A DNA stretch of 64,000 bases from Candidatus Heimdallarchaeum aukensis (GTDB lineage Archaea > Asgardarchaeota > Heimdallarchaeia > Heimdallarchaeales > Heimdallarchaeaceae). The stretch is from contig CP084166.1 of the NCBI GenBank assembly GCA_021513695.1, positions 2,752,001-2,816,000 of the forward strand, read 5' to 3'. Positions 11,153-61,000 of this stretch are shown here, piece after piece. Below the pieces are notes generated by a model that was not told the origin of the DNA, did no database searches, and worked only from the letters and a program-made list of their open reading frames with translations. A program made the translations under genes and the position numbers. Position 1 is the stretch's first letter. Every line of letters starts with the position of its first letter.

Positions 11153-11163
11153 GAAGGTGAAAG

Positions 11164-12140: not shown

Positions 12141-12183
12141 TTTGGCAGATAAAAACTTTCTAACTAACATAAGATCGTTATAC

Positions 12184-12627
12184 ATGGCTATTGCACAGAT
12201 GTTCAAGAAACCATTCACAACAAAGTATCACACAACAAACAAAGAAAGAATAGTGGAATACGACAGATTGCGTGGAGAACTTATAATGAACTTACCCAAA
12301 TGTGTGGGTTGTACACTATGTGTTCAAGCTTGTCCTAATGCTGCATTGAAAATGGTTTCATATGACAATGGAAATCCAAGAAACAAAAAGAAACATGTTC
12401 CTTCTTTTAATTTAGGACTCTGCAGTTTTTGCGCTTTATGTGTAGAAGCTTGTCCTTATGATGTCCTAGAAATGGGTAAAGTGTACGATAGAGCCTATGC
12501 CACTATGGAAGATATGCTTCGTTCTCCTGAGGAGATGTATGAGGATTGGATTGAACAGAAAGGAGAAGAAGATGAAATAGATCCTGAAGAAATTGAAACT
12601 GACAAAATCGATATCGAGGAGGATTAA
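12184..12627 (+). CDS. nuoI: Complex I subunit I (2x[4Fe-4S] ferredoxin-type); acidic C-terminal tail
   Basis: Two CxxCxxCxxxCP motifs (CVGCTLCVQACP, CSFCALCVEACP); track start 12085 overlaps nuoH, internal ATG 12184 more plausible. Confidence 0.85.
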   Translation: MAIAQMFKKPFTTKYHTTNKERIVEYDRLRGELIMNLPKCVGCTLCVQACPNAALKMVSYDNGNPRNKKKHVPSFNLGLCSFCALCVEACPYDVLEMGKVYDRAYATMEDMLRSPEEMYEDWIEQKGEEDEIDPEEIETDKIDIEED

Positions 12628-12628
12628 A

Positions 12629-14086: not shown

Positions 14087-14095
14087 GGTGAAAAA

Positions 14096-16126: not shown

Positions 16127-16135
16127 GGTGAAAAA

Positions 16136-17605
16136 ATGATAGGAATATTAACTACTTTAATAACTGTTCCCCTTATAGGAGCAATAATTGTGTTCTTGAT
16201 TGGAACAAAAAATAAAAAACTTTCAAGACTTTTAGCTCAATTTATAACATTTGCTGAGTTATCAATCTCTTGGAGTTTATTCGCTTTCTATGATAGAATT
16301 AATAAAAGGCTCAATATTGAGGATGAATTTGTACGATGGATAGATTCTTTTTCTATTCATTTTTCGCTCAGCATTGATGGAATAAGCTTTGTGCTAGTAC
16401 TACTCTCAACTACCATCGTATTTCTAGTTGCTCTCCAATCTACATTCGTAATAGAAGAAAATGAACATTTATACTATACTTTGCTTTTACTATTTGAGAC
16501 AGGAATTTTAGGAGTCTTCTTGGCTTCAAACTTAATAATATTCTACATTTTCTGGGAATTAGTTTTAGTTCCAATGTTCTTTCTTATAGGTGAATGGGGT
16601 GGAGAAAGAAAACGTTATGCTGCAGTCAAGTTCTTCATATTTACACATGTAGGAAGCTTGTTTATGCTACTAAGTTTTCTGTATCTATTCATTAACATGA
16701 AAACATTTAGTATTATAGAGTTAAGTCAAAAGGATATACCTGAAATTGTTCAAACCATTGCAGCAATCGGTATCTTCCTTGGAGTGGCAGTAAAACTACC
16801 CGCTGTTCCAATACATTCATGGTTACCTGATGCACATGTAGAAGCTCCAAGTCCAGTAAGTGTATTACTCGCAGGTCTATTGCTAAAAATGGCAGGATAT
16901 GGTTTTCTTAAACTAGGATTGAATATTGTCCCAGAAGGAATAAAAGTCCTGCGTCCTGTTCTTATAACCTTAGGTGTAGTTGGAGCTTTTTATGCTGCTT
17001 TTGCTGCTATAGCACAAAAGGATCTCAAGAGAGTTATTGCTTTTACTTCAATTAATCACATGAGTTTTATCATGATCGCAGTAGCAGTTGCAACACCCCT
17101 TGCAATTATTGGAGCAGTATTTCAAATGATAAGCCATGGAATAATCATAGGGCTAATGTTCTTCCTCTCTGGTATAATACAACACCATGTAGGAACCAGA
17201 GAAATAAACTTACTTGGAGGAATAAAAAAGAAACCTGTTTTAACTGGTTTCTTAATTGTTGGCTCTATAGCTGCATTTGGCGCTCCTCCAATGAGTGGAT
17301 TCATTGCAGAAATGATGATATTCTTTGCTTCGATTCCAGTATATCCTTGGGTAATGACTGTGGCTGCTTTCTCAATCGTAATAACCTCTGTTATTTACCT
17401 TTGGTTACTAACTAGAGTACTATTTACTAATAAAGCAGAAGAAGTAGTTTTTGAGGACCTAGTATCTCATCAGAACTACTTAAAATATGAATTATCAATA
17501 GTTGGTCTCTTATTTATACCTATATTCGTTCTTGGATTCTTTCCAAATTTGTTAGTATCAATTATTGAACAAGCTGTGAACCAGCTTCTTAAAATAATAG
17601 GGTGA
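16136..17605 (+). CDS. nuoM: Complex I subunit M
   Basis: WLPDAHVEAPSPVSVLLAGLLLKMAGYG is the NuoM/ND4 signature. Confidence 0.85.
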   Translation: MIGILTTLITVPLIGAIIVFLIGTKNKKLSRLLAQFITFAELSISWSLFAFYDRINKRLNIEDEFVRWIDSFSIHFSLSIDGISFVLVLLSTTIVFLVALQSTFVIEENEHLYYTLLLLFETGILGVFLASNLIIFYIFWELVLVPMFFLIGEWGGERKRYAAVKFFIFTHVGSLFMLLSFLYLFINMKTFSIIELSQKDIPEIVQTIAAIGIFLGVAVKLPAVPIHSWLPDAHVEAPSPVSVLLAGLLLKMAGYGFLKLGLNIVPEGIKVLRPVLITLGVVGAFYAAFAAIAQKDLKRVIAFTSINHMSFIMIAVAVATPLAIIGAVFQMISHGIIIGLMFFLSGIIQHHVGTREINLLGGIKKKPVLTGFLIVGSIAAFGAPPMSGFIAEMMIFFASIPVYPWVMTVAAFSIVITSVIYLWLLTRVLFTNKAEEVVFEDLVSHQNYLKYELSIVGLLFIPIFVLGFFPNLLVSIIEQAVNQLLKIIG

Positions 17606-17610
17606 AAAAA

Positions 17611-19041
17611 ATGGAAGTAATTATTTATCCTTTAATCGCACTCCTTGTTGGTATTGTGTTAAGTTTAATAACTGGAACACTAAAAAAAGGAGATGTTGCA
17701 CGTACAATAAGTATCTTAAGCCTTATAACAGCGATATCTTTGCTTGCGGTTTTCTATCCTTTCAACGGTCAAAGACTATTCAGTGACACAATTGTTCTAG
17801 ATAATTTTGGAGGATTTTTTGTTTTTCTATTCTTATCTCTCGCTGTATTTATTCTACTTGGAAGCACAAAAGTGTTGGATGAACATCCTGAAATGCCGGC
17901 ACTTTTACTTCTTTCTACAATTGGGATGGCTTTAATCGGAATTACTGATAACTTAGTGATGATCTTTGTAGCTTGGGAATTAATGAGTTTGACAACATAC
18001 GTATTAGCAGGTCTTGGAAAAAGAGAACAATCAACAGAAGCGGCCATGAAATACTACATTTATGGAAGTGTTTCTTCTGCCCTTATTCTATTCTCTATTA
18101 GCTTGATATACGGTATAACTGGCTCTATGCAATTGTCCATAATAGCTACTGTTGCATCTTCACTAGACACAACGGCAATAGGTGTTCTGCTTTTATCTGC
18201 AACAATATTCATCTTTGGTTTTGGATATAAAGTAGGAATAGTTCCATTCCATCTTTGGTTACCAGATGTGTATGAAGGAAGCCCCGCTCCAGTAAGTGGG
18301 CTTCTAGCAGGTGTATCAAAGAAAGTAGCTATTGTCGCAACAGCTAGAATCTTTTTGACTGGATTTGAGAGTGTAGACTTTAATTGGAAAATCCTTTACG
18401 CAATTATAGCTGTAATAACTATGACTGTTGCTAATATTGCTGCTTTATCTCAAAGAAAAGTTGTAAGAATGTTTGCATATAGCTCGATCTCTCAAATAGG
18501 ATACATGATTGTCGGATTTGCTATATTTTCTCCTGAAGGATTGGCAGCAACGATGATGCAACTAACTGTTCATGCAGTTACAACCGTTGGAGCCTTTATC
18601 ACAATAGGTATTATAGCAAAGAAACTAGATCTCAGGACATATGATGACTATAAAGGTTTAGGAGCTAGAAAACCTGTGTTAGGACTAGGTTTGACAATAA
18701 TGATGTTGTCTTTAGCTGGCATTCCTCCTCTTGCAGGATTTGTCAGTAAATTGTTCTTGTTTACTGAAGCAGTAAGAGCTAATTTACTGTGGTTAGCAAT
18801 CGTTTTAGTTTTGAACAGCGTTTTATCGCTTGGTTACTATCTCCCTCTCATAAGAAACATGTATCTTGAGAAACCAGAGAAAACAACAGAAGGCGAAGAA
18901 ACGAAAAAAGAAAAATTCGACACTAGGACTATAGGTCCTATAATGGTCAATATTATGACTACATTAGCTATTGTAATTATACCAATCTTTGCACAAAAGA
19001 TTTTCGACATAATCACTGAAGCAGCTAAAAATGTAATATAG
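17611..19041 (+). CDS. nuoN: Complex I subunit N
   Basis: WLPDVYEGSPAPVSGLLAG is the NuoN/ND2 signature; ATG 17611 after AGGGTGAAAAAA. Confidence 0.85.
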   Translation: MEVIIYPLIALLVGIVLSLITGTLKKGDVARTISILSLITAISLLAVFYPFNGQRLFSDTIVLDNFGGFFVFLFLSLAVFILLGSTKVLDEHPEMPALLLLSTIGMALIGITDNLVMIFVAWELMSLTTYVLAGLGKREQSTEAAMKYYIYGSVSSALILFSISLIYGITGSMQLSIIATVASSLDTTAIGVLLLSATIFIFGFGYKVGIVPFHLWLPDVYEGSPAPVSGLLAGVSKKVAIVATARIFLTGFESVDFNWKILYAIIAVITMTVANIAALSQRKVVRMFAYSSISQIGYMIVGFAIFSPEGLAATMMQLTVHAVTTVGAFITIGIIAKKLDLRTYDDYKGLGARKPVLGLGLTIMMLSLAGIPPLAGFVSKLFLFTEAVRANLLWLAIVLVLNSVLSLGYYLPLIRNMYLEKPEKTTEGEETKKEKFDTRTIGPIMVNIMTTLAIVIIPIFAQKIFDIITEAAKNVI

Positions 19042-19054
19042 AGGTGAAAAAAAG

Positions 19055-19432
19055 ATGATGTTATTTGATGCAATAATTCCAGTACTCGCATTGGGCCTAG
19101 CAGGTATGATTTTCGTAGGTATAATGATGACTTTATCAGTCTTGACTAAACCTAAAGGAGAAAAAACAAAGCTAAAGTTACAAACCTATGAAAGTGGAGA
19201 AGTTCCAGTAACTGACCGTTTAGGATTCCAATTTAATTATCAATACTTTGTTTATGCTATAGTTTTCACTGCTTTGGACGTTATGTCTATTTTCTTATAT
19301 GCGTGGGCTGTTGATTCTGCCCGTTTAGAAACAAACACCTTACTAACGATACTTGGCTTTATCACAATTTTATTCTTGGGCTTTGTTTATGTATCTGTAG
19401 CAACAAGAGAGTGGAAGAAAAATATAATGTAA
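19055..19432 (+). CDS. nuoA: Complex I subunit A
   Basis: Three TM helices, ...NYQYFVYAIVFTALDVMSIFLYAWAV... NuoA/ND3 motif; last gene of operon. Confidence 0.8.
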   Translation: MMLFDAIIPVLALGLAGMIFVGIMMTLSVLTKPKGEKTKLKLQTYESGEVPVTDRLGFQFNYQYFVYAIVFTALDVMSIFLYAWAVDSARLETNTLLTILGFITILFLGFVYVSVATREWKKNIM

Positions 19433-30810: not shown

Positions 30811-32589
30811 ATGAATATCCGAACTAAAAGTGATTTTATTATAGTAGCAATTAGCGTGCTTGTGTTCTCTACAACAAGAGTTATCTATAGCCTTTTAATA
30901 ATAAATTGGAATAATTATGAAAAAGGGAATGTTACACCTTCATTTTTATTTTGGATAGATTTTATATCCTATTTTGTGGTTTTTTTCTTGTATTTGCTCT
31001 ATGGGTGGTATATTCGAAGGAAACTTGTTAAAAAAAATCAAGATAAAGGAGATTATTCCTTACATTATATTATTAGAATATTTATTACTATTTATGCCCC
31101 CATTTTCCTCATATCTTTTGTTATTTCTTTTATAAAACAAATTGATTTACGGATATACTATACTGCATCGATATTTAATGAAACAGTTCAAATGATGTTT
31201 TTTAGTACACTAGTGGGTATTCTTCTATATAATCAAATTGAGCAATTTTTCTCTAAAGTTTTTAAATCTTCTAATTATCAAAAATATTCTTCTGAAGAGT
31301 TGACTTTTCTTGAGCAATCAATAGTCAAAACAATTAACCGTTTTTGGAGTTATGCGCTTTACACAGTTCTATTTTTTGTTTTTTTAGCAAATTTTTTGGT
31401 TTTAGTAATCTATCCAAGTATCCCTACAGAATACGATTCTAGTATCAAATTAATTATAGCCTATCCAAATTTCTCTTTTACCTTTAATAAAGAAACAGGT
31501 TTTCATCAAGAATTTTTTACTTATCTTGCACTAGATTATACAAAGTTTCTTAACTGGAAATTAATTCAGTCTTTACTCTGTATTCTTTTTATTTTAGCAA
31601 TAGCACTACTTTATTATCTTCCTTTGCATAAAAAAGAAAACGAACCTTTAAACAATGTAGAAAAACAAGAGATTGCAGAAATAAAATCTAAAACAGAAGA
31701 AGTTCAAAGCACAGAAAAAGGAATACTCAAGCAAAAAGATACAACAAAGTTAAACAACACAGGTCTACAACAAGAGATTGATTCCATCGTTTTCCTAAAC
31801 ACTGAAAATGATTATTATACTCCAATAGGTTTTATTAAGAAAAGAAACAGAAAACTTGAAAAATTGTTGTCTCAAATGAAAAAAAGTGATATTATCCCTG
31901 TGATGAATCTTGCTGCTTTGAATCTGGGTTTAGCTATGGTTTTTGTTTATTTTGTTCACTTATTTGTTCCATTAGCATATTCAAGTTACACATTATCAGA
32001 TATTCTTTATATCCAACTTTCATCGTTGTATTGGGCTGGATTATTTGAAGAAATTTCTTTCAGATTCTTGATCATGGGTGTTCCCTTATTTATTATTCAT
32101 GGTTTTCGTTACTTAATAGCAAAGATTTTACAATATTATAAATCAAAAAATGAGGTTCCAGTGAAAGAAAAAGAAGAAAACAAAAAAATAGAGAATCCTT
32201 TTCTCTATTTAACTGGTCGTTGGAAAAAGTTAAGGATTATTGATTTTGTTTTCTTGATAGCTTCTTCTTTCTTTTTTGGTTATGTTCATTATCAATTTGG
32301 AAGTTGGGCTATATGGAAAATCTTTCAGGCTGGAATTGCTGGACTTATTTTTGGATATGCTTTCTATAAATTTGGTTTGCACGCAGCTATCTTCCTTCAT
32401 ACAGTCAATGATTTTGCAATAGGTATAATGCTTGTTCCAAATTTAGGGTTAATGGTTCAAGGAGGATTTGTAGTTATTGTACTTGTTTTAATGGGAATAA
32501 TGTACTCATTCTATATTTTTTCATTATTTCTTAAAAAAACAAGCAATCTAAGCTTTAGAAAATTGAATAAACAAAAAGAGGTAAACTAA
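30811..32589 (+). CDS. CPBP-family (CAAX-protease/Abi, Rce1-like) intramembrane metalloprotease with long polytopic N-terminal extension
   Basis: C-terminal motifs EEISFRF (EExxxR), FGYVHYQ (FxxxH), HTVNDF (HxxxN/D) in TM helices. Confidence 0.6.
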   Translation: MNIRTKSDFIIVAISVLVFSTTRVIYSLLIINWNNYEKGNVTPSFLFWIDFISYFVVFFLYLLYGWYIRRKLVKKNQDKGDYSLHYIIRIFITIYAPIFLISFVISFIKQIDLRIYYTASIFNETVQMMFFSTLVGILLYNQIEQFFSKVFKSSNYQKYSSEELTFLEQSIVKTINRFWSYALYTVLFFVFLANFLVLVIYPSIPTEYDSSIKLIIAYPNFSFTFNKETGFHQEFFTYLALDYTKFLNWKLIQSLLCILFILAIALLYYLPLHKKENEPLNNVEKQEIAEIKSKTEEVQSTEKGILKQKDTTKLNNTGLQQEIDSIVFLNTENDYYTPIGFIKKRNRKLEKLLSQMKKSDIIPVMNLAALNLGLAMVFVYFVHLFVPLAYSSYTLSDILYIQLSSLYWAGLFEEISFRFLIMGVPLFIIHGFRYLIAKILQYYKSKNEVPVKEKEENKKIENPFLYLTGRWKKLRIIDFVFLIASSFFFGYVHYQFGSWAIWKIFQAGIAGLIFGYAFYKFGLHAAIFLHTVNDFAIGIMLVPNLGLMVQGGFVVIVLVLMGIMYSFYIFSLFLKKTSNLSFRKLNKQKEVN

Positions 32590-33176
32590 TGACACTTGAT
32601 AGCAGATTATACTTTAAAGTTGTTTTAGCTGGAGAAGCAGGGGTAGGAAAAACAAGTCTTCGAAGAAGTTATTTGGGAGTAGGATTCCAGACACAGCATT
32701 TAAGTACTATAGGTGCAGACTTTGCAAGTTATTCTACAAAAATAAATGAACAAAGAGTGAATTTTCAGATTTGGGATTTAGCTGGTCAAGATATCTTCGA
32801 AAGCATGCGAAATTTGTATTATAAAGGAAGTTTGGGTGCATTGATGGTTTTTGATGTAACCGATGTATCTAGTCTAGAAGCCTTAAACAATTGGATAATT
32901 GAATTAGATAAAAATTCAGGTAGAGGAATTGTACCTTTTTCCATATTAGGAAATAAAATAGATCTATTAGATGAGGAAGAACTCAATAAAATAAGAAAAA
33001 CTGTAGACTTAGTCATAAAAAAATACAATAAAAAATTTGCAAGTAAGGGTTTTTCGATTAATTATTTTGAAACTTCAGCGAAAACTGGCCATAATGTCAA
33101 AATCGCTTTTAATAATCTTGGAGAATCAATTTTTAATTATCTTGAATTCAGAAGAAAGAAGAGGGAAGAAAGTTGA
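32589..33176 (+). CDS. Rab/Ras-like small GTPase
   Basis: G1 GEAGVGKTS, G2 T in switch I, G3 WDLAGQD, G4 GNKIDL, G5 ETSAKTG; start overlaps CPBP stop (TAATG); no C-terminal CAAX. Confidence 0.8.
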   Translation: MTLDSRLYFKVVLAGEAGVGKTSLRRSYLGVGFQTQHLSTIGADFASYSTKINEQRVNFQIWDLAGQDIFESMRNLYYKGSLGALMVFDVTDVSSLEALNNWIIELDKNSGRGIVPFSILGNKIDLLDEEELNKIRKTVDLVIKKYNKKFASKGFSINYFETSAKTGHNVKIAFNNLGESIFNYLEFRRKKREES

Positions 33177-35527
33177 AAAATATTGATGTTGAACTAAGAG
33201 ATTTATTGAGAACTGGAAAAAAAGAATCTATTGATATAAATAACCTAAAAAAACTAAAAAGTATAATTCTCTTCCTAAATGACGAGGATCGTGAAATAAG
33301 ACGTACTACACAAGAGATTCTCTTATCTGCTCCTATAATCCCAGTTAGCGAAATTGTTGATCTTTATCTCTCTACTGAGAGTGAATATGTTGCTGATTTT
33401 ATAGTTGAAAATTTAAATATTTTCTTAATTGATTTGGTAGACAGATTTAGTAACAAGATAGATAGTATTATTGTTTCTGAATTAATTAAAAAAATCCCTG
33501 TAAAAGATTTATTTGCTACTTTAGTCGAAATCGCTGAAATTACTCCTATTTCAGCTAAAAAAGCTGAACTCATAATCCGAACATGTTATCCTTCTTTTTC
33601 AGAAAGCATGAATTCATTAATATCCTATGATTTTATTGAAAATTTCAAAAAAGAGATAAAAAAACTTCTTTCTATAAGACTAAAAGAGAATGATAAAAAT
33701 ATTACAACTCTTGTTCTAAAGACTGCGTGTTTCTTTCCTGAACTTCCCCCTCTGATAGAAAAAGAACTAATTAATATCATTAATCATTCAGATATAGAGG
33801 AACACATAATTTATGCAACTACTGCTTTAATAAATGTAGAAAACAAAAAGAATGCGCAGATTCTAGCTAATAGACTTAAAAATGGAAAAGATTCAGAAAA
33901 AGTAAAATTAGCTATTATTGAATCCCTTGGTAATATAGGAAATCCAAAGATTGCGCCAATAATGATCGAATTATTCGATGAAGGAGGACAGATAGCTTAC
34001 TCTACATCTAAAAGTCTGGGGTCAATGGGTGTTGAAGTCTTACCTTATTTAGTTCAAGCATTAAAAGAAGATCGTTATATACCAAATATTGTAGAGTCTA
34101 TGAAACGTATTGGTAGTGCAAGCTTCGAATATCTGATGACTAGCTTGGAAAAGGAAAGAAATATACAAATTAGAAAAAACATTGCTCATTGTTTAACACT
34201 GGTGATGCATGAACAATATGGTTATGAGGGAACAATTAAACTACTAACAAACGAATTAGCAGGAAAAAATCGAGAGCTAGTAGAAGCAGTAACTCAAGCG
34301 CTAATAAATTTAGGTACTCCTTCAATTGAGTATCTCATTGATGAATTAAATGATAAAGATCGCGAATTAAGAAAAAATGCAGTAAAAATTCTTGAACATT
34401 TTGGAGAAGGAAATATTGAAATTGCTCTTGATGGGTTACTTGAAACAGATGAAGATAGAGTAGGTACATTGAGTATTATATTATATGTTTACCATCCTGA
34501 TGAAAGATTAAGAAAATTAGGATATTCTTTTGCTGTTCATAAAGGAAATCTAAGAGCTAAAAAAACAGACAAATTACTTGAAATATTGACTGATGCCCTT
34601 AATGAAATTGACCCCTATATTCGAATTCGTTCTTGTGATATACTTGTATTTTTCAAAAGTAAGGCCATTCCTCATTTAACCAAACTTCTCTCTGACCCAA
34701 ACATTCTAGTTAAAAGAAAAGCAGCAGAGGCACTACGTACAATAAAAAGCAAAAGAGCATTAATAGCATTGATGAATGCTGCTACTGATAAAGACCCAAT
34801 AGTTTCTGAAATTTCTACAAGAGCTTTGGGAGAATTAGGAGATCCAGGTGTTGTAGATATCATTCTTGGGAATTTAAAGAGAAATAGTCAAGCAATATAT
34901 GAAGCTTCAGTTTATGCTCTTTCTCAACTAGGAACACCTATATTACACAAGATAACAAAAGAATTAAGCAGTTCAAATAAAAAAGTTGTAGATGGTATAG
35001 TCGATGCAATATCGAAAATAGGGACAGTTGGACTAGAAATTCTGATAAAAAAATATTTAGAAGAGAACGGAAGAAGAGTTGCACAAATTGAACGAATAAT
35101 TGGAAAAATGGGCGAAACAGCAATACCTGCAATATTAGAAATATATGAAAAGACTAGTGATTCTCAAAATAAAGAAAAGTTATTGAGACTAAGGGCAAAG
35201 ATTAAAGATACTTCTGTAACTAAAGAAATAGTTGAAAAGCTACAAAAACCAGCTAGTAAAAAAACAGCAATTGAACTTATAAATTTGATTGGAATTGAAT
35301 GTGTGAATAAAATAGTTGATGAATTACTCAAATTAGAACAAAACAAAGTAAAAAGGATTTTCACAAAGAATATTAAAATTGAACCTAAAATATTGGTTTC
35401 GATTATTAAGGAGTTGAAATTAAGAGAACAACAGCAACTTGCACTACATCTTATTAATCAAAACCAAAGAACGTTAAAGAAATTTGTAAGCGAGAATCCA
35501 GAATTTGAAAGTTTGTTTGAAGAATAA
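33173..35527 (+). CDS. HEAT/PBS-lyase-type repeat protein
   Basis: Repeated about 30-aa helical repeats with ...ALG.IG.P.A...L...L.D motif (for example AIIESLGNIGNPKIAPIMIELFDEG; ALRTIKSKRALIALMNAATDKDPIVSEISTRALGELGDP); start overlaps GTPase stop (TTGA). Confidence 0.6.
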   Translation: MKNIDVELRDLLRTGKKESIDINNLKKLKSIILFLNDEDREIRRTTQEILLSAPIIPVSEIVDLYLSTESEYVADFIVENLNIFLIDLVDRFSNKIDSIIVSELIKKIPVKDLFATLVEIAEITPISAKKAELIIRTCYPSFSESMNSLISYDFIENFKKEIKKLLSIRLKENDKNITTLVLKTACFFPELPPLIEKELINIINHSDIEEHIIYATTALINVENKKNAQILANRLKNGKDSEKVKLAIIESLGNIGNPKIAPIMIELFDEGGQIAYSTSKSLGSMGVEVLPYLVQALKEDRYIPNIVESMKRIGSASFEYLMTSLEKERNIQIRKNIAHCLTLVMHEQYGYEGTIKLLTNELAGKNRELVEAVTQALINLGTPSIEYLIDELNDKDRELRKNAVKILEHFGEGNIEIALDGLLETDEDRVGTLSIILYVYHPDERLRKLGYSFAVHKGNLRAKKTDKLLEILTDALNEIDPYIRIRSCDILVFFKSKAIPHLTKLLSDPNILVKRKAAEALRTIKSKRALIALMNAATDKDPIVSEISTRALGELGDPGVVDIILGNLKRNSQAIYEASVYALSQLGTPILHKITKELSSSNKKVVDGIVDAISKIGTVGLEILIKKYLEENGRRVAQIERIIGKMGETAIPAILEIYEKTSDSQNKEKLLRLRAKIKDTSVTKEIVEKLQKPASKKTAIELINLIGIECVNKIVDELLKLEQNKVKRIFTKNIKIEPKILVSIIKELKLREQQQLALHLINQNQRTLKKFVSENPEFESLFEE

Positions 35528-36896: not shown

Positions 36897-37817
36897 CTAT
36901 CCTTTGACCAATTTTATTATTGCATCTATTATAAAATCTAATAGAAATACAAGGAATACGATTAATAAGATTTCTTTTGTAGTATATGCCCATTTAGGAT
37001 TTTGAGTAATGATTATTGCTATAGCTAAACCTAATACTAGTAGAGCCAAGATAATAGCAATAATAAGTGAGGGTAAGTATAAGTCAGCAATAATCATCGC
37101 ACCAATAGCTCCCCCTGCTAGACCTAGAAGGAAAAAAGCACCTACGATGCCAGCTACTCTTGGACCAAAAACAACAGCTATAGTTTTGTTTCCTGCTTTT
37201 TTATCTCCTTCGATGTCTGGTAAACCTTTTATTACTTCTCTACCTACATTTCCAGAAGCTGCCGCAAGACCTACAATAGTTGGAACCCAAGTAAAACCTT
37301 GTTGATAAACAAAATAACTGAATAGAGATCCATAGACAAAGAGAGCTACAACATTCAATCCAATAAGCACATTACCAAAAAATCCCATCTGTTTTACTTT
37401 GAAATTGTATAAGTTTAATGAACTTCCAAATATTAAAGCTGTAATAACACTTATTCCTGGTAAACCTTCTCTAATATCAATTAACAAAGCTAAAATTAGA
37501 GCGATCAAAGCAACAATTACCCCGTAAATAACTGCTGTTCTTACTGATATTTTCTTTGATGGTATAGGTCTATGTGGAGCATTTACTAGATCTTCTTCTC
37601 TGTCTGCAATATCATTAAAAATCATAGCTTGAGATGAAACGAGCGTACCAGATAATAGAACAAGTAGAAGGGTTATGTAATCAATTTTTGCTCCTACAGG
37701 AGTTGATAGAATGATAGCAAAAATTGCAGCTGTTCCTGCTACTATACCATTTACTAACCTAAGAATTGTTATATAAGAAAGAAAAATATCTTTTTTCGAG
37801 TGTTTTGTTAAAGACAT
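36897..37817 (-). CDS. UbiA-family prenyltransferase (possibly DGGGP-synthase-like)
   Basis: NDIADREED (NDxxDxxxD) Mg2+/diphosphate motif, about 8 TM; 3' 720 bp lie inside repeat copy 1. Confidence 0.65.
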   Translation of the reverse strand: MSLTKHSKKDIFLSYITILRLVNGIVAGTAAIFAIILSTPVGAKIDYITLLLVLLSGTLVSSQAMIFNDIADREEDLVNAPHRPIPSKKISVRTAVIYGVIVALIALILALLIDIREGLPGISVITALIFGSSLNLYNFKVKQMGFFGNVLIGLNVVALFVYGSLFSYFVYQQGFTWVPTIVGLAAASGNVGREVIKGLPDIEGDKKAGNKTIAVVFGPRVAGIVGAFFLLGLAGGAIGAMIIADLYLPSLIIAIILALLVLGLAIAIIITQNPKWAYTTKEILLIVFLVFLLDFIIDAIIKLVKG

Positions 37818-39240
37818 AAGGTCTAATCATTAGCAGATGAATTTAAATCTTACCTCTTTTTTTGAGTATAAATTACTCGCTTTTTTTTCCTGTTATCTCA
37901 AATGTTTTGATTTCACTATCATTTTCAGGAAGTTTAAGCAGTTCTAAAAGTGATAAGATCATCTTGCCAAATAATTTTTCCATAAATTCATTTAAAGGAA
38001 TCTCTTTTCCATTAATCTTTACTTCTATTTCATCTAACATGAAAAAAAAAACACTGTTGAGTTTATTAATTTTATCTTAATCTCAAATGAATAATTATAA
38101 CTTTTTTAGTTAAAGAATTCACTTAACCAAGAGTTCACTATACTTTTTTGCTAAATTAAATGAAAAAAATTTAAAGAAAAGAAGCAATAAAATTATATTT
38201 AAATATTATGAGCGTAGGTAAGAATATAGGTGTAAATTTTCATGGAAGTAGGTGCGTTAATTTTTATGCTACTAATTGCACTGGCAGTGTACATAACCAT
38301 AAGGGTTTCCTCAGCGAATAAGAAGAAGAGAAAACAAATTTATCGTAAACGATATCAACCTTATCAACCTTACAGACCTTATCAGCCATCACACCTAGAT
38401 TCTTCTCAAAGAACAAGTTATCAGAGTGAAGAAACCACCCCAACAACAAGAACTTCTTCTATTTATCAACCTCAAACTCAACCCTCTTATACTCCACAAA
38501 GAACTCCAATAGCAACAAATAATGCCGATGATTATTATCGTGCAGGAATGTACGATAGAGCAAAAGAAGAATATCTTAAAACAGGGAGGATATTTGGTGC
38601 AGCTAAATCTGTAGCTTCTAAAGGAAAAGAATATGTAAAAGAAGCTTTGGAAATAATTAGACAATATGCTCCAGAAAGAGAAGAAGAAATGGTAAGAAAT
38701 CTTTCAAGATACTTTTTTGATAGTGGAGATGTAGAATTATCAGCTCAAGTATTATATGATTATAATCTTATTGAAGAAGCTAAAGCAGTATTAGCTACCA
38801 TAGGAAAGAGTATAGAAGATATAGTTGAACCTAAATCTGTTGAGATTAGCACATTCAGTAGCACTGAACCCTTTCTATCTAGTACTGAAAGTGAAACAGA
38901 ACCTATCATTTCCAGTTTTGCTAGCGATACTGAACCAATAAATGATGCAAGAGAAGAGCTGAAAGTATTGGCAAGTGAAGAAGAAGCAGAACCCATTGAG
39001 CCTTTTACAAGTCAAGTTGAAAAACAGAAAAAAATAGAACCACAACAACTAAAGATAGCTACAGTAGATTTAGATGAAAGATGTACAGTTTGTTTAGGAG
39101 AAGTAAAAGCAGGAGAAAGTTTTGTTAGATGTCCCCATTGTGGAAAACCTTCTCATTATTCTCATTTAGTAGAATGGCTAAAAGTAAAAACCCAATGTCC
39201 TAACTGTAGAAACAAATTATCATTAAATATGTTTAAAACA
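37098..39240. repeat. Tandem direct duplication, copy 1 (2143 bp)
   Basis: Sequence 37098-39240 recurs at 39241-41381 with only two single-base differences. Confidence 0.9.
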
Positions 39241-39264
39241 CGCACCAATAGCTCCCCCTGCTAG
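38242..39264 (+). CDS. Membrane-anchored, Pro/Tyr/Gln-rich protein with C-terminal RING/PHD-like (C4H2C2 cross-brace-type) zinc finger
   Basis: N-terminal TM (LIFMLLIALAVYITI), low-complexity YQPYQPYRPYQP...TPTT region, C-terminus CTVCLGEVKAGESFVRCPHCGKPSHYSHLVEWLKVKTQCPNCRN. The last 8 codons (RTNSSPC) are created by the duplication junction; native end is ...MFKT*. Confidence 0.55.
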   Translation: MEVGALIFMLLIALAVYITIRVSSANKKKRKQIYRKRYQPYQPYRPYQPSHLDSSQRTSYQSEETTPTTRTSSIYQPQTQPSYTPQRTPIATNNADDYYRAGMYDRAKEEYLKTGRIFGAAKSVASKGKEYVKEALEIIRQYAPEREEEMVRNLSRYFFDSGDVELSAQVLYDYNLIEEAKAVLATIGKSIEDIVEPKSVEISTFSSTEPFLSSTESETEPIISSFASDTEPINDAREELKVLASEEEAEPIEPFTSQVEKQKKIEPQQLKIATVDLDERCTVCLGEVKAGESFVRCPHCGKPSHYSHLVEWLKVKTQCPNCRNKLSLNMFKTRTNSSPC

Positions 39265-39960
39265 ACCTAGAAGGAAAAAAGCACCTACGATGCCAGCTAC
39301 TCTTGGACCAAAAACAACAGCTATAGTTTTGTTTCCTGCTTTTTTATCTCCTTCGATGTCTGGTAAACCTTTTATTACTTCTCTACCTACATTTCCAGAA
39401 GCTGCCGCAAGACCTACAATAGTTGGAACCCAAGTAAAACCTTGTTGATAAACAAAATAACTGAATAGAGATCCATAGACAAAGAGAGCTACAACATTCA
39501 ATCCAATAAGCACATTACCAAAAAATCCCATCTGTTTTACTTTGAAATTGTATAAGTTTAATGAACTTCCAAATATTAAAGCTGTAATAACACTTATTCC
39601 TGGTAAACCTTCTCTAATATCAATTAACAAAGCTAAAATTAGAGCGATCAAAGCAACAATTACCCCGTAAATAACTGCTGTTCTTACTGATATTTTCTTT
39701 GATGGTATAGGTCTATGTGGAGCATTTACTAGATCTTCTTCTCTGTCTGCAATATCATTAAAAATCATAGCTTGAGATGAAACGAGCGTACCAGATAATA
39801 GAACAAGTAGAAGGGTTATGTATCAATTTTTGCTCCTACAGGAGTTGATAGAATGATAGCAAAAATTGCAGCTGTTCCTGCTACTATACCATTTACTAAC
39901 CTAAGAATTGTTATATAAGAAAGAAAAATATCTTTTTTCGAGTGTTTTGTTAAAGACATA
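39241..39960 (-). pseudogene. UbiA prenyltransferase fragment (copy 2): 3'-truncated at the repeat junction and frameshifted
   Basis: Same sequence as 37098-37817 but missing one A (GTTATGTATCAA vs GTTATGTAATCAA), which splits the N-terminus; lacks the C-terminal 67 codons. Confidence 0.6.
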
Positions 39961-41381
39961 AGGTCTAATCATTAGCAGATGAATTTAAATCTTACCTCTT
40001 TTTTTGAGTATAAATTACTCGCTTTTTTTTCCTGTTATCTCAAATGTTTTGATTTCACTATCATTTTCAGGAAGTTTAAGCAGTTCTAAAAGTGATAAGA
40101 TCATCTTGCCAAATAATTTTTCCATAAATTCATTTAAAGGAATCTCTTTTCCATTAATCTTTACTTCTATTTCATCTAACATGAAAAAAAAAACACTGTT
40201 GAGTTTATTAATTTTATCTTAATCTCAAATGAATAATTATAACTTTTTTAGTTAAAGAATTCACTTAACCAAGAGTTCACTATACTTTTTTGCTAAATTA
40301 AATGAAAAAAATTTAAAGAAAAGAAGCAATAAAATTATATTTAAATATTATGAGCGTAGGTAAGAATATAGGTGTAAATTTTCATGGAAGTAGGTGCGTT
40401 AATTTTTATGCTACTAATTGCACTGGCAGTGTACATAACCATAAGGGTTTCCTCAGCGAATAAGAAGAAGAGAAAACAAATTTATCGTAAACGATATCAA
40501 CCTTATCAACCTTACAGACCTTATCAGCCATCACACCTAGATTCTTCTCAAAGAACAAGTTATCAGAGTGAAGAAACCACCCCAACAACAAGAACTTCTT
40601 CTATTTATCAACCTCAAACTCAACCCTCTTATACTCCACAAAGAACTCCAATAGCAACAAATAATGCCGATGATTATTATCGTGCAGGAATGTACGATAG
40701 AGCAAAAGAAGAATATCTTAAAACAGGGAGGATATTTGGTGCAGCTAAATCTGTAGCTTCTAAAGGAAAAGAATATGTAAAAGAAGCTTTGGAAATAATT
40801 AGACAATATGCTCCAGAAAGGAAGAAGAAATGGTAAGAAATCTTTCAAGATACTTTTTTGATAGTGGAGATGTAGAATTATCAGCTCAAGTATTATATGA
40901 TTATAATCTTATTGAAGAAGCTAAAGCAGTATTAGCTACCATAGGAAAGAGTATAGAAGATATAGTTGAACCTAAATCTGTTGAGATTAGCACATTCAGT
41001 AGCACTGAACCCTTTCTATCTAGTACTGAAAGTGAAACAGAACCTATCATTTCCAGTTTTGCTAGCGATACTGAACCAATAAATGATGCAAGAGAAGAGC
41101 TGAAAGTATTGGCAAGTGAAGAAGAAGCAGAACCCATTGAGCCTTTTACAAGTCAAGTTGAAAAACAGAAAAAAATAGAACCACAACAACTAAAGATAGC
41201 TACAGTAGATTTAGATGAAAGATGTACAGTTTGTTTAGGAGAAGTAAAAGCAGGAGAAAGTTTTGTTAGATGTCCCCATTGTGGAAAACCTTCTCATTAT
41301 TCTCATTTAGTAGAATGGCTAAAAGTAAAAACCCAATGTCCTAACTGTAGAAACAAATTATCATTAAATATGTTTAAAACA
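39241..41381. repeat. Tandem direct duplication, copy 2 (2141 bp, two 1-nt deletions)
   Basis: Identical to copy 1 except loss of one A near 39823 and one A near 40823. Confidence 0.9.
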
Positions 41382-41384
41382 TAA
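40384..41384 (+). pseudogene. RING/PHD-like membrane protein gene (copy 2) disrupted by a -1 frameshift
   Basis: CCAGAAAGGAAGAAG in copy 2 vs CCAGAAAGAGAAGAAG in copy 1; ORF split into 40384..40836 and 40830..41384; keeps native C-terminus ...NMFKT*. Confidence 0.6.
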
Positions 41385-42329: not shown

Positions 42330-43880
42330 CTAAGTTAGGATATTTTCTCAATAACATGGTCTACTTTTTCCTAAATTCCGATTTAGATTAAAAATCGGAA
42401 GAAGTAGTAAGTTTAGTCGGTGGAAAAAAAGAAAGAGAAAGAACAGCGTAAAAGCTGGTCTAACTAACTTAACTTGCTAACTTATTTTCCAACGGACGGG
42501 GTGAACCACTGCAGCCCAGACTATCCCGTAGTTAGACATAACAGAGAATAACGTGGGGAATACTTTGCGACCGATATTACCTGCAGAGTTGATATCAGCA
42601 TTAATTTTTAATCCTCTGGTACTGATGAACAGTCCACGGTGAGTTCTTTTGCCAGCATAATGGGGGTGAAAAGCTATCTCTTCATTATCTAAGAAACTGC
42701 AGACAGAGGTGTAGGACTCTTCGGTAGGAATAACTTTTATCCCTTTTTCTTCTGCTTTGTAAGTGATTTTGTCAATGAGGGATTTAAAGGGGATAAAAAC
42801 AAAGGTTTGATTATTTTTCTTTCCCATATTCACTTTCTGTTTCCATCTGGGGTTGTAACCTATAACTATCGTATCAATGTTTTTTTCTAAACAGTAGTCT
42901 ATTATCTTCCTACTTGCTTTATGGAAATAGTCAGCTATTTTACACATTCGTTCTAACTGGAGAGTAAGCATTTTTCTTCCCCAGGTGGTTAATCCTTGCT
43001 TGTCATAGATTGACTGTAATTTTGCCCTACGTTTATTAAACCACTGATTAACAGCTTTAATGGGTCTACCATTTATCAGAAAACCTTTTTCACCAGGAAT
43101 AGTGGTTAACCCGCCTACAAGGTTATTCACTCCCAGATCAAGAGCTAGAACTCTTTCTGCATGTCGTTTTTTTCGTTCTTCTATCTCTTTCTCGTAAACT
43201 ATCTCTAATTTAAATTTCGTTCCCATAGGTATAAGACGGGCAAACTTCACTTTCGTTGAAGGACACAGTCTTGTAACTATCTTTAGTCCTACACGTTTAG
43301 GGAAAGAGATAAAAAATTTTTCTTTTTCTTGCTCTTTTTCTTCTTTAATTTTCACTTGAGAGTTAGTAAAATAGATTATAGCAAGTCCATCTTTCTTCTT
43401 CTATTTTGGAGGACGGGGTTTACCATTAAACTTTTCTGGTTCTTTTTTGCATTCTTCTAAAGACCTAAAATACCCTTTCCACGCTAAACATAGAAACTTT
43501 ATCGTCTGTTGTGCCGTATGACCAGGTAGTGCTGTGTAGGTCGGGTGATACCTTAAAATATTCATCAGTTCGAACTCTCTCGTGAAATATTTACTTTTTC
43601 TTAACTGATACTTAATAATGTAATTTGCTTGATTATACAAGTTTTTTACCTGGTGTGCCAACTGCTTTAGAGTGATCGATTCTTTCACCCATATTTCCTC
43701 AGTTCGGTACACCTTTTTCCTCATTTTTTCTTTCATTTATTTTTACTTTTTTCCCTATTTAAACTCCTCATCTTCCCTCCTCTCCTCTCTTCTCCTCTCC
43801 TTTATTCTTCTTTTTTCCCCCTCTTCTACAACTTCGTAATTTCGGAAAAAGTAAACCATCAGAACTTCTTTTACGCATTT
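42330..43880 (-). mobile_element. IS200/IS605-like element remnant (tnpB only, no tnpA); boundaries approximate
   Basis: Solo tnpB; GC-rich 3' end region (42480-42560) where omega-RNA scaffolds normally lie; CT-rich tract 43751-43835 at the 5' side. Confidence 0.35.
42477..43736 (-). pseudogene. tnpB: IS200/IS605-family tnpB (OrfB, RuvC-like RNA-guided nuclease) interrupted by one in-frame TAG
   Basis: Track ORFs 43401..43736 and 42477..43355 are in the same frame, separated only by TAG at 43401-43403. Downstream part has LALDLGVNNLV (RuvC-I), zinc-finger Cys and INADINSAGNIGRK motifs. Confidence 0.7.
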
Positions 43881-47755: not shown

Positions 47756-48298
47756 TTACTTATTTTCTCCAAGTTTCTTCATTACTAACTTGACTATTGT
47801 GACATAAACATCATTTACTCCTGCTCCTAATTTAGCAGAAGTCTCAAGAACTTGGTAACCTTTACTTTCCCATTCTTTTTTTGCTTGTTCATAAGGTACA
47901 GCTCTTTGTTCTTCTAGATCTGTTTTATTTCCAACAATGATGATTGGTATGTCAGGTACTTTATTTTCTATCTCTGATATCCAATAAGAAATATTTTCAT
48001 ATGATTCTTTTCTAGTAATGTCATAAACCACCACAGCACCATGAGCTCCAGTGTAATACCTTTTCCTTAAGGAAGCTAGACGTTCTTGTCCCACTGTATC
48101 AAATAATACCATTTTTATTTTTGTATCCTCATCAATGTCAACTTCCTTGCTGTAGAAATCCACTCCTAATGTAGGAAGATAATTAACCGAAAATTTGTTC
48201 TTTGTATATCTCACCGCAATACTTGTTTTTCCGACACTATAGTCACCAACATTAATTATCTTAACAATAAAGGTGACATTTTTGTTTGAACCTAACAT
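47756..48298 (-). CDS. Rab/Ras-like small GTPase
   Basis: G1 GDYSVGKTS, G3 FDTVGQE, G4 GNKTDL, G5 ETSAKLG; no CAAX. Confidence 0.8.
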   Translation of the reverse strand: MLGSNKNVTFIVKIINVGDYSVGKTSIAVRYTKNKFSVNYLPTLGVDFYSKEVDIDEDTKIKMVLFDTVGQERLASLRKRYYTGAHGAVVVYDITRKESYENISYWISEIENKVPDIPIIIVGNKTDLEEQRAVPYEQAKKEWESKGYQVLETSAKLGAGVNDVYVTIVKLVMKKLGENK

Positions 48299-57640: not shown

Positions 57641-58097
57641 TCTCTTGTTTTAATTTGACTATAACAAATATAACCTTATTGGTTTTTCTTTGCTCTATGA
57701 AATAAGCTAATAATAATTTACATACTTAGACTTAATGATAACTTATTATTTGTTAATAGTTATCAAATTTTTTTCAACTCTCTTTTTCTTTTATCATTTT
57801 ACTCACTTTTCATTGCATTACTTTTTAAAACAATTTTACTTTTTAGTTTCTCTTTATTTTATCTAGTAAGTCGTATATAGTTTATGTAATGGCATTTTGT
57901 CGGAAGTACTGGGGCTTGAAATTACTGTTTGCAAAATAAGTTTTTTACACTATGATGTAAAAAAAAATTAAGTGAAAAAAAGTTAGGTGCTTATAAAAGG
58001 TAAAAGAGTTTTAAATGGAAAGAGAATCTTTAAGAAAAATTTTCTTGTTTAAGTACTAAAGTCTCTAAAAGTTATTAGAAGAAAATAGGGGATAATA

Positions 58098-61000
58098 TTG
58101 GCAGATCTAAAACTATCAGAAAATGCATTAACAGTACTACAAAAAAGGTACTTACTAAAAAATGAGAAAAACGAAGCAATTGAAACTCCAGAACAGATGT
58201 TTGAAAGAGTGGCAAAAAGTATAGCTTCAAGTGAAGAAGAAAAAAAAGAATTTTATGAATTGATGACTTCTTTAAGATTTCTACCTAACAGCCCTACTCT
58301 TATGAACGCAGGAACGAAGCTAGGTCAACTATCAGCTTGTTTCACTGGAGAGCAAGTAATAATCACAGCTGAAGGAAATAAGCAAATAAAAGATATTCAA
58401 ATTGGAGATTTAGTCCTGACAGCTTCAGGTAATTTTAGAAAGGTTACCCAAACTATGCAAAGAAAAGTTGACAAAAGATACATTATTGATGTTTTGAAAC
58501 TACCTAACTCTACTCTTTCTGTAACAGAAGATCACCCTATTCTTACCTACAAAAATGGAAAAATTAAATGGAGTTTAGTAAAAGAATTAAGTAAAAACGA
58601 TTTTGTAGCTTTATCATACCCAAAGGAAATTGAAGATATTTCTTCAATTAATGTTATAGATTACTTATCTGATAGAGATTATAAAGTAAAGGATGGTATG
58701 ATATTAAATAAAAATACAAAAGTTGGAATAGAATCAGATGAAATAAGTGATCAAGAAATTCCAATAAGAAATAAAATAGAAGTAGATGGAGAGTTTCTTA
58801 GATTTTTAGGTTATTATGCTAGTGTGGGAGAACTAGATAAAAAAATAGTAAGATTTGCTTTTTCAGATAAAGAGATGGATTATGTTGAAGAAGTAATATC
58901 AATTGCAAAAAGTAAATTTGAATTAGATGCAAGAATAGAAAACTCTGATGGAAATATAGTGATTGTGCAATTTTATTCATCCATACTATCTGAATTCGTT
59001 AAGAAAGTCATAGGAGAAGGAAACAACAAAAGAGTTCCCATATGGATATTGAAATTACCTCCAGAAAAACAAGAAAACTTTGTTTTAGGGTGTTTTAGAG
59101 GAGATAACTCTTTATTTTCTAGTAGTTATATGCTTGATGCTCGTTTATCTGCGTGTAATGATAATTTAGTATATTCAATATGGATCATGTTAATGAGAAT
59201 GGGGATAGTTCCCAATCTTGATAAATCCCCTATTCCAAAAGGTGAAACCACCTATTCTTATTCTTGTTATATTGGAGAAACAGAAAAGAGCGATTCCTTT
59301 GTAGAGATTCATGGAAAAGACGGTAAAGGAATTTCTCAATTATCTTTACAAAAATTAAATCATATAATTGTCAATGATACTGTTTTTCTCCCTATACGAA
59401 GTATCGAATGTATCGAAGAACCTGTGACTGTTTATAATCTAGAAGTAGAGGAGGAACATACATATGTTGCAAATTTTGTTTCAGTTCACAATTGTTTTGT
59501 ACTTCCAATAGATGATTCTCTTCCCTCCATTTTTGATGCAGTGAAAAAAGCGGCATTAATACACCAAAGTGGAGGAGGATGCGTTGCTGAAGGAACAGTA
59601 ATACCTACAGAAGAATTCGGTTTTATACCCATTGAAAAGATACCTGGATTTGAAAACATTCCTTCTGACGAACAAGGACATGATTGTGAACCTTTCACTG
59701 TTTATTCATTTGATGAGGACAAAGAATCTTTCACAAAAGGAACAGTAACAAAACTTTGGAAATTCAAGAAAAATAAATATTTGAGCATTAAATTCGGAAC
59801 AGAAGGAGTAATAGAAGTCACACACTGGCATCCTTTCATAGTTTATGTCCCTTCTGAAGAGAAAAAGAAAGGAGGATATTATACAGAAAAAAGAGCAGAT
59901 GAATTGAAAGTTGGAGATCTGTTGGTTAGTCCCTCTACCCATAAGATAACTGAAACTTCTAGTATTTCCGATGTACACAAGGTTAAAGTAGAAGAAATAA
60001 AAGAAATAGAAGAAGAAAAAGTATTTTATGACTTTACAGTACTTAAATATAATAACTATCTAGCAGGTTCTAAACAATTTACAGTTATCCATAATACAGG
60101 TTTTAGCTTTAGTAATATTAGACCAAAAAATGATGTAGTCAAAACTACTGGGGGGGTAGCTTGTTTTCCTGAAGATGTAAGGATTTATACTAACAAGGGA
60201 TTATTAACAATCAAAGATATAATCCAATCTGATCAACCAATTAAAGCTTTGACTCATGATGGATTCCACGAAATAATAAATAAATACGATAACGGAGATG
60301 CTGAAGTTTACAGACTTATTACATCTAATGGATATTCAGTTAAGGCAACCTCTACTCATAAATTTTTAACAATAGAAAATAATGAGTTGGTACTAAAGCC
60401 TCTTAATAAACTTCAAGAAGGAGATTATGTTCTTCTTTTTTCTACTTTTGAATCTGTTGATGAAAAAGAACCATTTAAGCTATCTCCTATTACTGACGAT
60501 GGTCAAACTTTTGATGAAATTTATCTTGATGAAGATCTTGCCTATTTCATAGGATTAACTTATGCAGATGGACATATTATTGATGATGGAAGACATTATA
60601 GCGTAAGAATCACTTTAAACAAGAACCAAATACGTATAATCGAAAAAATAAAGAAAATAGTTCAAACTAAGTTTGACTATGATTTGAAAGTCTATGAGCG
60701 TAAAAATGTAAATAAAGTTGAACTTGTTCTACACGGAAAAAGATTTGTAAAATTGTTAAAAGAAAATAATTTACTTAAAGAAAAATGTGAAAATATTCGT
60801 ATTCCAGAATTATTATTTCAAAGCCCAAGAAATGTCCTAAGCTCATTTATTGCAGGATACTTCGATGGTGATGGTCATGTAAGTAAAAGCGGGCGAATTA
60901 GCATTAAAACAATATCCAAACAAATGAGTGAAGATTTTTCATTATTGATAACGCGGTTAGGTGTACTATCTACAACTCATATTAGTCCCCCTATTTATGG

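Follow-up and report, generated by a model that had tools for sequence, protein, structure and literature searches.

This article concerns a single gene in Candidatus Heimdallarchaeum aukensis, found at positions 38242..39240 (+ strand) of a 64,000-nucleotide stretch of its genome (contig CP084166.1, positions 2,752,001 to 2,816,000; this whole 64-kb stretch is called the window throughout). The gene is real and its 333 codons specify a membrane-tethered RING-type, ubiquitin-ligase-like protein, in which one N-terminal transmembrane helix, a helical domain resembling TPR/Sel1 repeats and a C-terminal RING finger are strung together by disordered linkers. The RING assignment itself is not new, since database records already call some members of the family 'E3 ubiquitin protein ligase' or 'RING finger protein'; what is new is the architecture, a known operon-type finger carried in a membrane-anchored TPR-RING protein, and no description of such a family in Asgard archaea was found in the open-access literature. 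I consider it probable that the protein is a cytoplasm-facing, membrane-tethered RING ubiquitin ligase, one that would bind a ubiquitin-conjugating enzyme (E2), be active with it and act on targets of its own.

The zinc finger is a RING

The finger lies at residues 281-322 (nucleotides 39082-39207, + strand) and has the spacing C-x2-C-x12-C-x2-C-x4-H-x2-H-x10-C-x2-C, just as an earlier reading of this DNA from its letters alone (the sequence-only reading) had described; with its conserved flanks it makes up a RING domain of residues 268-333 (39043..39240, + strand). Its eight zinc ligands, C281, C284, C297, C300, H305, H308, C319 and C322, are invariant in an alignment of 34 Heimdallarchaeaceae relatives sharing 46-89% identity with the window protein. 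The same 34 sequences show no variation at V283, W312 and P320, and at position 323 they have either R or K. The extra His in the CPHC segment is no ligand, since this position varies between H, F and Y. Across Heimdallarchaeia, including Kariarchaeaceae and Hodarchaeales, the C4H2C2 spacing is kept in 32 of the 36 sequences checked, the remaining four being two truncated fragments, a protein whose ligand 6 is Asp and an unrelated repeat protein of 1501 residues.

Profile searches and structure prediction agree on the identity of this finger. The hidden Markov model of Pfam zf-RING_2 (PF13639), one of the models against which the sequence-only reading proposed to check its assignment, is matched over its full length (model positions 2-44 of 44) and above its curated cut-off of 27.3 bits, with 27.5 bits for the whole protein and 31.8 for the domain alone. 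Prok-RING_1 (PF14446) aligns only through its model positions 4-31 of 54, which correspond to the finger's first half (C-x2-C...C-x2-C-x4-H), and its cut-off of 29.1 bits is not reached by the window protein (20.8 bits whole, 27.9 domain). Other family members score higher: among 25 diverse family fingers all 25 match Prok-RING_1 (best E = 3.5e-8, with a precomputed PF14446 match on the member P0002), and 23 match zf-RING_2. By these Pfam matches the first half of the finger goes with Prok-RING_1, and the second looks instead like a eukaryotic RING-H2. In the AlphaFold model, the finger has a strand-strand-helix core (strands 293-296 and 303-305, helix 306-315), and a Foldseek comparison with solved structures returned the RING-H2 domains of RNF165, RNF38, RNF12, RNF13, RMR1 and EL5 at probability 1.0, superposing at 1.3-2.6 Å over about 50-62 residues with 26-36% identity; the fold matches listed are all RING domains, and zinc ribbons are absent from the list. 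The cross-brace type of finger that had been proposed is thus what structure prediction gives, and not a zinc ribbon. Similarly, a sequence search found RNF165 at E = 1.5e-6 and the family profile found RNF24 (5e-7), followed by Arkadia, RNF126, EL5 and synoviolin, and the helix motif H-x2-H-L-x2-W-L and the ending C-P-x-C-R align to Arkadia and RNF165 with no gap. Going by the RING fold, the model itself being metal-free, zinc site 1 would consist of C281/C284 and H305/H308 and site 2 of C297/C300 and C319/C322.

The earlier statement that the ligands match neither canonical RING-H2 nor PHD also holds. Aligned with RING-H2 domains (C3H2C3), Cys300 is ligand 3, the place of the ligand-4 His is taken by a Lys, His308 stands in for the Cys of ligand 6, and Cys297, three residues before ligand 3, supplies the ligand that is missing at position 4, so that the finger is C4H2C2. 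PHD fingers have C4HC3 ligands and a Trp two residues before ligand 7; here that Trp is absent, the residues before ligand 7 being K-T-Q, and the PHD pattern is not present. The proposed likeness to eukaryotic membrane-bound RING and RING-CH ligases, for its part, divides in two, as the RING-H2 half is upheld by zf-RING_2 and by the fold and the RING-CH half is not, RING-CH fingers having C4HC3 ligands with C-x-C at ligands 3 and 4, and the RINGv profile finding no match in the window protein or in 25 family members. The sole MARCH-like match to a solved structure was c-MIR (2d8s), at E = 0.11 and for a distant family member, and the PHD profile matched 6 of the 25 members at E values of at least 0.0045 and did not match the window protein. 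On scores and fold, neither the RING-CH nor the PHD reading is favoured, and both were rejected.

The sequences flanking the finger are conserved too, with Q-x-L-K-[IV]-A-[ST]-x-D-L before it (residues 268-280, nucleotides 39043-39081) and K-L-x3-M-[FY] after it (residues 326-333, nucleotides 39217-39240; M-F at residues 330-331 of the window protein), and the AlphaFold model shows these flanks as short, possibly paired strands. Dimeric RINGs such as RNF4 are called to mind by the conserved aromatic residue close to the C-terminal end.

Kinship with the RINGs of archaeal ubiquitin operons

When a profile of the finger alone was searched, its nearest relatives outside the family were nine stand-alone Asgard RING proteins of 73-90 residues (P0115-P0123). 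Their ligand spacing is the same, BLASTP gives them 38-52% identity to the window finger (45-52% for seven of the nine), and the pairwise comparison with P0116 gives 52% over 52 residues, gap-free, at E = 2e-22. In both genomic contexts examined (contigs L014 and L015) the small RING is the first gene of an operon that continues with ubiquitin, UQ_con (the E2) and ThiF (the ubiquitin-activating enzyme, E1). Because the closest outside fingers share the spacing and sit in RING-ubiquitin-E2-E1 operons, the C4H2C2 finger is that of the Asgard operon ubiquitin ligase (E3), here joined in one protein with a putative recognition domain and with a membrane anchor. The sequence-only reading had thought that the gene would fit an Asgard ubiquitin system, and this is supported by a Heimdall-group Asgard host and by a finger of the type found in such operons.

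The small RING finger proteins (srfp) encoded in archaeal ubiquitin operons share more with the window finger than spacing and overall identity, namely a hydrophobic residue after ligand 1, the helix Trp, C-P-x-C, an Arg/Lys linchpin and the same pair of Pfam profiles, Prok-RING_1 and zf-RING_2. They differ in being soluble proteins of about 80 residues encoded directly beside ubiquitin, E2 and E1 genes, whereas the window protein has 333 residues, a membrane anchor, a TPR-like domain and no ubiquitin-gene neighbour at the loci inspected; also, their N-terminal segment reads RF.I.S.KEIG.WDW, compared with LK[IV]A[ST]xDL in the window family. The Caldiarchaeum srfp is a biochemically proven E3, in which mutation of I30 abolished ubiquitylation in vitro and mutation of W58 or R69 impaired it (PMC5654768), and going by the roles described for them, and not by an alignment, these three residues may be equated with V283, W312 and R323 of the window protein. 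An Asgard cascade of E1, E2 and RING-E3 has been reconstituted in vitro (bioRxiv 10.1101/2023.07.25.550441). Genes for ubiquitin and for two E2s that possess the catalytic Cys are present in the related genome AB_125 (PMC9192718; PMC5654768), Heimdallarchaeum being described as a clade related to AB_125 (PMC8813620).

The two operon contexts have features of their own. [quoted passage not shown] L014 (8001-10192) is labelled Hodarchaeota, and its downstream genes are common with those of L015; because of these shared genes, the two organisms are probably closely related, and one contig or the other may carry an incorrect taxonomic label.

A membrane anchor, a helical domain and a fixed layout

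The other modules of the protein follow from the N-terminus. A single transmembrane anchor occupies residues 4-24 (38251..38313, + strand), a hydrophobic helix as had been called from the letters alone, and a hydrophobic 19-mer with a mean Kyte-Doolittle value of at least 2.0, starting at about residue 6, is found in 76 of 82 family sequences. The median net charge is -1 before this 19-mer and +8 in the 20 residues that follow it. Orientation of membrane proteins generally obeys the positive-inside rule, and since the flanking charges follow this rule, the protein would be single-pass with its N-terminus, some two to ten residues, outside the cell and all else in the cytoplasm. The anchor is followed by the basic juxtamembrane stretch KKKRKQIYRKR and by Y-x-P-Y-x-P repeats (residues 25-49, 38314..38388, + strand), the latter being the low-complexity region YQPYQPYRPYQP of residues 38-49, and both of these had been noticed before. 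Among the 34 relatives K29, Y38 and P40 are at least 90% conserved and Y41 is invariant; Y-x-P-Y beside the basic stretch is conserved only within Heimdallarchaeaceae, and its triple repeat is genus-specific. The suggestion that this region is PY-motif-like has to be dropped, as neither PPxY nor LPxY occurs in the window protein or the seven relatives checked. A PY motif of the kind bound by WW domains is therefore out, the conserved element in these eight members being Y-x-P-Y.

A linker enriched in T, Q, P, S and Y (residues 50-92, 38389..38517, + strand), disordered in the model (predicted local distance difference test score, pLDDT, below 50 over residues 41-89), leads to a TPR/Sel1-like domain of seven helices (residues 93-194, 38518..38823, + strand), the most conserved module of all with a mean identity to relatives of 73%, compared with 67% for the finger, 18% for the first linker and 29% for the second. 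Selection acts on the modules, as the contrast between the TPR-like and RING identities and the 18-29% of the linkers shows. The second linker (residues 195-267, 38824..39042, + strand) is acidic, with 22% E and 16% S, and is disordered (pLDDT below 50 at 204-231 and 248-261) apart from one short helix at 234-245. The AlphaFold model, which was built with an alignment, accordingly contains three confident modules with disorder between them, namely a helix at residues 2-35 (pLDDT above 90), residues 95-194 (above 93) and the finger at residues 270-333 (about 95). The elements listed in the sequence-only reading are all present in this layout; the helical domain of about 100 residues was missing from it, as was a tandem duplication described below. 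The likeness of residues 93-194 to TPR/Sel1 repeats is one of fold, a stack of helix-turn-helix repeats: no TPR or Sel1 Pfam profile matches the window protein, a 419-residue homologue gives faint TPR Pfam matches only, and a profile search of solved structures reached consensus TPRs only at E values of at least 0.58.

The domain has also served to delimit the family. Heimdallarchaeaceae contribute 59 clusters, mostly of full-length proteins, that are 43-100% identical, and an exhaustive search of 1.84 billion cluster representatives with the profile of residues 93-194 returned 31 proteins, with Kariarchaeaceae, Hodarchaeales and unclassified Asgard genomes as the sources of the distant ones. 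Those distant matches that were inspected, two truncated fragments excepted, have the same layout of anchor, basic stretch, domain, linker and C-terminal finger. The family is therefore specific to Heimdallarchaeia and fixed in its architecture.

How the protein may work

If the protein is a ligase, its RING would dock a ubiquitin-charged E2 through V283, W312 and P320, and R323 would be the linchpin that primes the docked, charged enzyme. The TPR-like domain may keep a substrate or some other conserved partner on the cytoplasmic side of the membrane, both flexible linkers would let the RING reach a target held in this way, and the outcome would be the transfer of ubiquitin to membrane-proximal targets, possibly feeding an Asgard ubiquitin-ESCRT route or the quality control of membrane proteins.

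This layout has parallels in known ligases. Eukaryotic membrane RING-H2 ligases (RNF24, ATL/EL5, the PA-TM-RING proteins RNF13/RMR1, and Hrd1/synoviolin) are among the best matches of the finger to solved structures, and they follow the same logic as the window protein, a transmembrane anchor with a cytoplasmic RING near the C-terminus. They differ in their ligands (C3H2C3 in place of C4H2C2), no homology to them was detected outside the finger, and none has the TPR-like domain of the window family. CHIP/STUB1 also joins TPRs to a ubiquitin ligase domain; it is soluble, its U-box is zinc-free, its domain order and linkers are other than those seen here and there is no sequence similarity, so the analogy is one of function only.

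Several observations weigh against a catalytic role. The whole-protein zf-RING_2 score is only 0.2 bits above the curated cut-off. Some RINGs that follow helical repeats are structural, such as those of GATOR2, which is itself among the weaker matches obtained here. Distant members of the family replace the Trp by Y, F, I or M, their linchpin is sometimes G, N or H and their Pro is sometimes K, and because the E2-contact and linchpin residues vary in this manner, ligase competence may not be family-wide. Furthermore, the 64-kb window holds no E1, E2, ubiquitin or JAB gene (its open reading frames of at least 40 residues, compared with ubiquitin and four E2s by phmmer, gave nothing below E = 0.5), and at the nine family loci inspected none of these genes occurs in the surrounding 8-10 kb. 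The Asgard E2 of L014, used as a query, found 45 E2s, which belong to Jord-, Hel-, Njord- and Odin-type genomes, and none labelled Heimdallarchaeaceae, with a reach of at least 51% identity and with one partial eukaryotic transcript as the only match below that value.

A separate scan of prokaryotic genomes with three eukaryotic E2s ran on eukaryote-specific peptide patterns, and its five matches, in bacterial assemblies, are likely to be eukaryotic contamination or transfer and do not bear on Asgard archaea.

The same observations could be explained if the RING were non-catalytic and the protein a membrane-tethered scaffold, with the TPR-like domain and the RING serving for contacts or oligomerisation and with no transfer of ubiquitin. 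The C-terminal RINGs of helical-repeat proteins in GATOR2/SEA and alpha-COP are known to be used in this way, a helical repeat followed by a RING is a known coat-related architecture (PMC4678705), and the window family does find such proteins, both with the whole model (IFT-A WDR19, weakly at E = 7e-3, and GATOR2 chains, also weakly) and by profile (WDR24 at 7e-5, WDR59 at 1.4e-4 and WDR19 at 3e-3); a variable E2-contact Trp and linchpin in the distant members, and family loci of which none inspected is linked to a ubiquitin-system gene, would also suit a scaffold. However, catalytic RING-H2 domains outscore the GATOR2 and IFT-A fingers in every search, the nearest homologues of the finger are operon RINGs encoded beside ubiquitin, E2 and E1, and the window protein has no beta-propeller. 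Also, V283, W312, P320 and R/K323 are invariant in Heimdallarchaeaceae, an invariance that a structural finger would not need. A scaffold, though the main rival, is for these reasons an unlikely account of the protein. Much less credible still is that the finger is not a RING at all and that it consists of two zinc ribbons, or acts as a reader of the PHD type, binding nucleic acid or a modified peptide. In favour of this might be cited sub-threshold Pfam matches (Zn_ribbon_9 at 1.7e-3, Zn_ribbon_6 at 0.013 and in 21 of 25 members, DZR at 0.16), the PHD matches of six members given above and a ligand 3-6 spacing, C-x2-C-x4-H-x2-, equal to that of PHD fingers. Against it, every zinc-ribbon and PHD score is under its curated cut-off, the listed fold matches are RING domains with RING-H2 the best of them, the helix motif and ending align gap-free to Arkadia and RNF165, the Trp that marks a PHD finger is absent and the nearest homologues sit in ubiquitin operons.

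Returning to the membrane-tethered ligase, its importance lies in how it departs from the archaeal RING ligases studied to date, which are tiny and soluble and come from ubiquitin operons, as this family is larger, anchored and equipped with a putative recognition domain of its own, and is restricted to the archaeal class placed closest to eukaryotes. If these proteins are active, the diversification of ligases and the localisation of ubiquitylation to membranes, both of them prerequisites for ESCRT cargo sorting and membrane-protein quality control, predate eukaryotes. The window protein is also a concrete and easily expressed candidate for the reconstituted Asgard E1/E2/ubiquitin reactions. 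I would go further only tentatively, to the possible but doubtful proposal that the family as a whole is a working membrane-bound ligase that marks membrane or membrane-proximal proteins for the ubiquitin-ESCRT route or for extraction and degradation, and is the prokaryotic counterpart, possibly the forerunner, of the eukaryotic membrane RING-H2 ligases; if true, the diversification of E3s into substrate-specific, compartment-tethered forms had begun before eukaryotes. A more remote version of this idea, in which the helical-repeat and RING arrangement is related to the C-terminal halves of GATOR2, HOPS and alpha-COP, has a low probability because ordinary RING-H2 and TPR proteins match better. 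Compared with the coat-related helical-repeat-RING proteins (GATOR2 WDR24/WDR59, IFT-A WDR19, alpha-COP, HOPS/CORVET), the window protein is without a beta-propeller and has a transmembrane anchor, and the matches to them, weaker than those to ordinary RING-H2/TPR proteins, do not indicate common descent.

A tandem duplication and the native C-terminus

The gene as assembled does not end where the protein does. An open reading frame of 340 codons with an ATG start does run from 38242 to 39264 on the + strand, as the sequence-only reading had it; its end is non-native, as it crosses the junction of an exact head-to-tail duplication of 2.14 kb in which 37098-39240 is repeated as 39241-41381. Copy 1 (37098..39240) comprises part of the UbiA gene, a 55-residue open reading frame and the RING gene to its last codon, and copy 2 (39241..41381) is free of substitutions and lacks only two single base pairs, the equivalents of copy-1 positions 37680 (GTAATC to GTATC) and 38679 (AGAGAAG to AGGAAG). 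The junction at 39240/39241 is blunt and clean, ...TTTAAAACA being followed directly by CGCACCAAT. Because it falls just before the stop codon, the RING gene of copy 1 has gained seven foreign codons, and residues 334-340 (RTNSSPC, with their stop at 39241..39264, + strand) are a non-native tail read through into copy 2, antisense to its UbiA gene copy. The true stop codon has been displaced by the duplication to 41382-41384 (+ strand), where it ends the second RING gene copy (40384..41384, + strand), which is split by frameshift into open reading frames at 40384-40836 and 40830-41384. Also, the duplication creates a false, truncated UbiA open reading frame at 39223-39768 (- strand).

The native protein ends ...SLNMFKT and has 333 residues. 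This length follows from three sources that agree with one another: protein P0001 has 333 residues and is 100% identical to the native form; the Illumina contigs L001 and L002 also carry the 333-residue form, the Illumina-only L001 being 100% identical through copy 1 and then going straight on at window position 41382 with the native stop, and L002 having a single copy, the native stop and one indel relative to copy 1; and collapsing the duplication in silico restores the 333-residue form. The closed genome of Candidatus Heimdallarchaeum endolithica (L003) has one copy of the RING gene, encoding 336 residues; the window is 86-89% identical to this genome in DNA, consistent with the average nucleotide identity of 88% reported between the two Heimdallarchaeum species (PMC8813620).

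Copy 2 is most likely an artefact of assembly, of scaffolding or of gap filling, as indels with no substitutions have the look of uncorrected long-read sequence, and the H. aukensis assembly consists of Illumina contigs scaffolded by Nanopore reads from DNA obtained by multiple displacement amplification (PMC8813620). It would be somewhat surprising if the duplication were biologically real and recent, with a second UbiA fragment and a second RING gene decaying by frameshift and with the 340-residue form expressed in this strain. The assembled sequence does carry it, with a clean blunt junction, the authors of the genomes report many repeats in Heimdallarchaeum (PMC8813620), and short-read assemblers can collapse tandem repeats, so that single-copy Illumina contigs do not prove its absence. 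However, both of the 1-bp deletions, the only changes in 2141 bp, fall in short purine-rich runs, a profile expected of uncorrected long reads and not of divergence, L001 and L002 each have a single copy that ends in the native stop, there is likewise only one in the sister species, and the assembly was scaffolded with Nanopore reads of amplified DNA, as given above. The junction itself found no match in metagenome contigs, where a control, the native gene end, was equally empty, so the organism is absent there. For genome annotators the practical point is that a probable artefact produces both a false C-terminus and a false RING pseudogene.

Genomic neighbourhood

The RING gene lies in a block of housekeeping synteny with UbiA, dCTP deaminase, RadA, a HEAT-repeat protein, Ras-family GTPases and pilus genes. 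At four distant loci the RING gene comes directly after the gene for glutamyl-tRNA synthetase on the same strand (L005 6290-8909; L007 2914-5557; L008 6268-9014; L016 6044-9260), with a spacing that ranges from an 8-bp overlap (L005) to a 115-bp gap and suggests co-transcription; the very distant 419-residue member is included among these. This linkage is broken in the window and in H. endolithica. Between the UbiA and RING genes is the 55-residue open reading frame mentioned above (37873-38040, - strand, repeated at 40015-40182), which has no Pfam match, and a small gene of 51-58 residues is also called beside UbiA in L001, L003-L004 and L005-L007.

Further upstream, at 30811-35527 (+ strand), three abutting or overlapping genes encode a protein of 592 residues, a Ras-family small GTPase of 195 residues and a HEAT-repeat protein of 784 residues, and in L003 and L005-L007 the whole of this unit, or just the HEAT and Ras genes of it, is again found close to the RING locus. 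Another Ras-family GTPase is encoded at 47756-48298 (- strand). At 42477-43355 (- strand) there is a TnpB-like gene of 292 residues with OrfB_IS605 and Cas12f1-like TNB domains, which is absent at the corresponding position in H. endolithica (L003); both L001 and L002 stop at window position 42391, just before this gene, as would be expected of a multi-copy insertion sequence. Near the start of the window, at 376-1038 (- strand), is a GPP34/GOLPH3-like protein (Pfam E = 2e-18), GOLPH3 being a Golgi phosphoprotein family in eukaryotes. An open reading frame for a ribonucleotide reductase of more than 1970 residues, with several inteins that contain LAGLIDADG homing-endonuclease domains, runs from 58089 to 64000 (+ strand) and off the end of the window. 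Lastly, about 12 genes at 8183-19432 (+ strand) make up a complex-I/Mrp-like operon (Proton_antipo_M, Oxidored_q4), and its guanine-plus-cytosine fraction of 0.33-0.36 (about 0.36 for 8-16 kb) compares with about 0.30 across most other DNA of the window.

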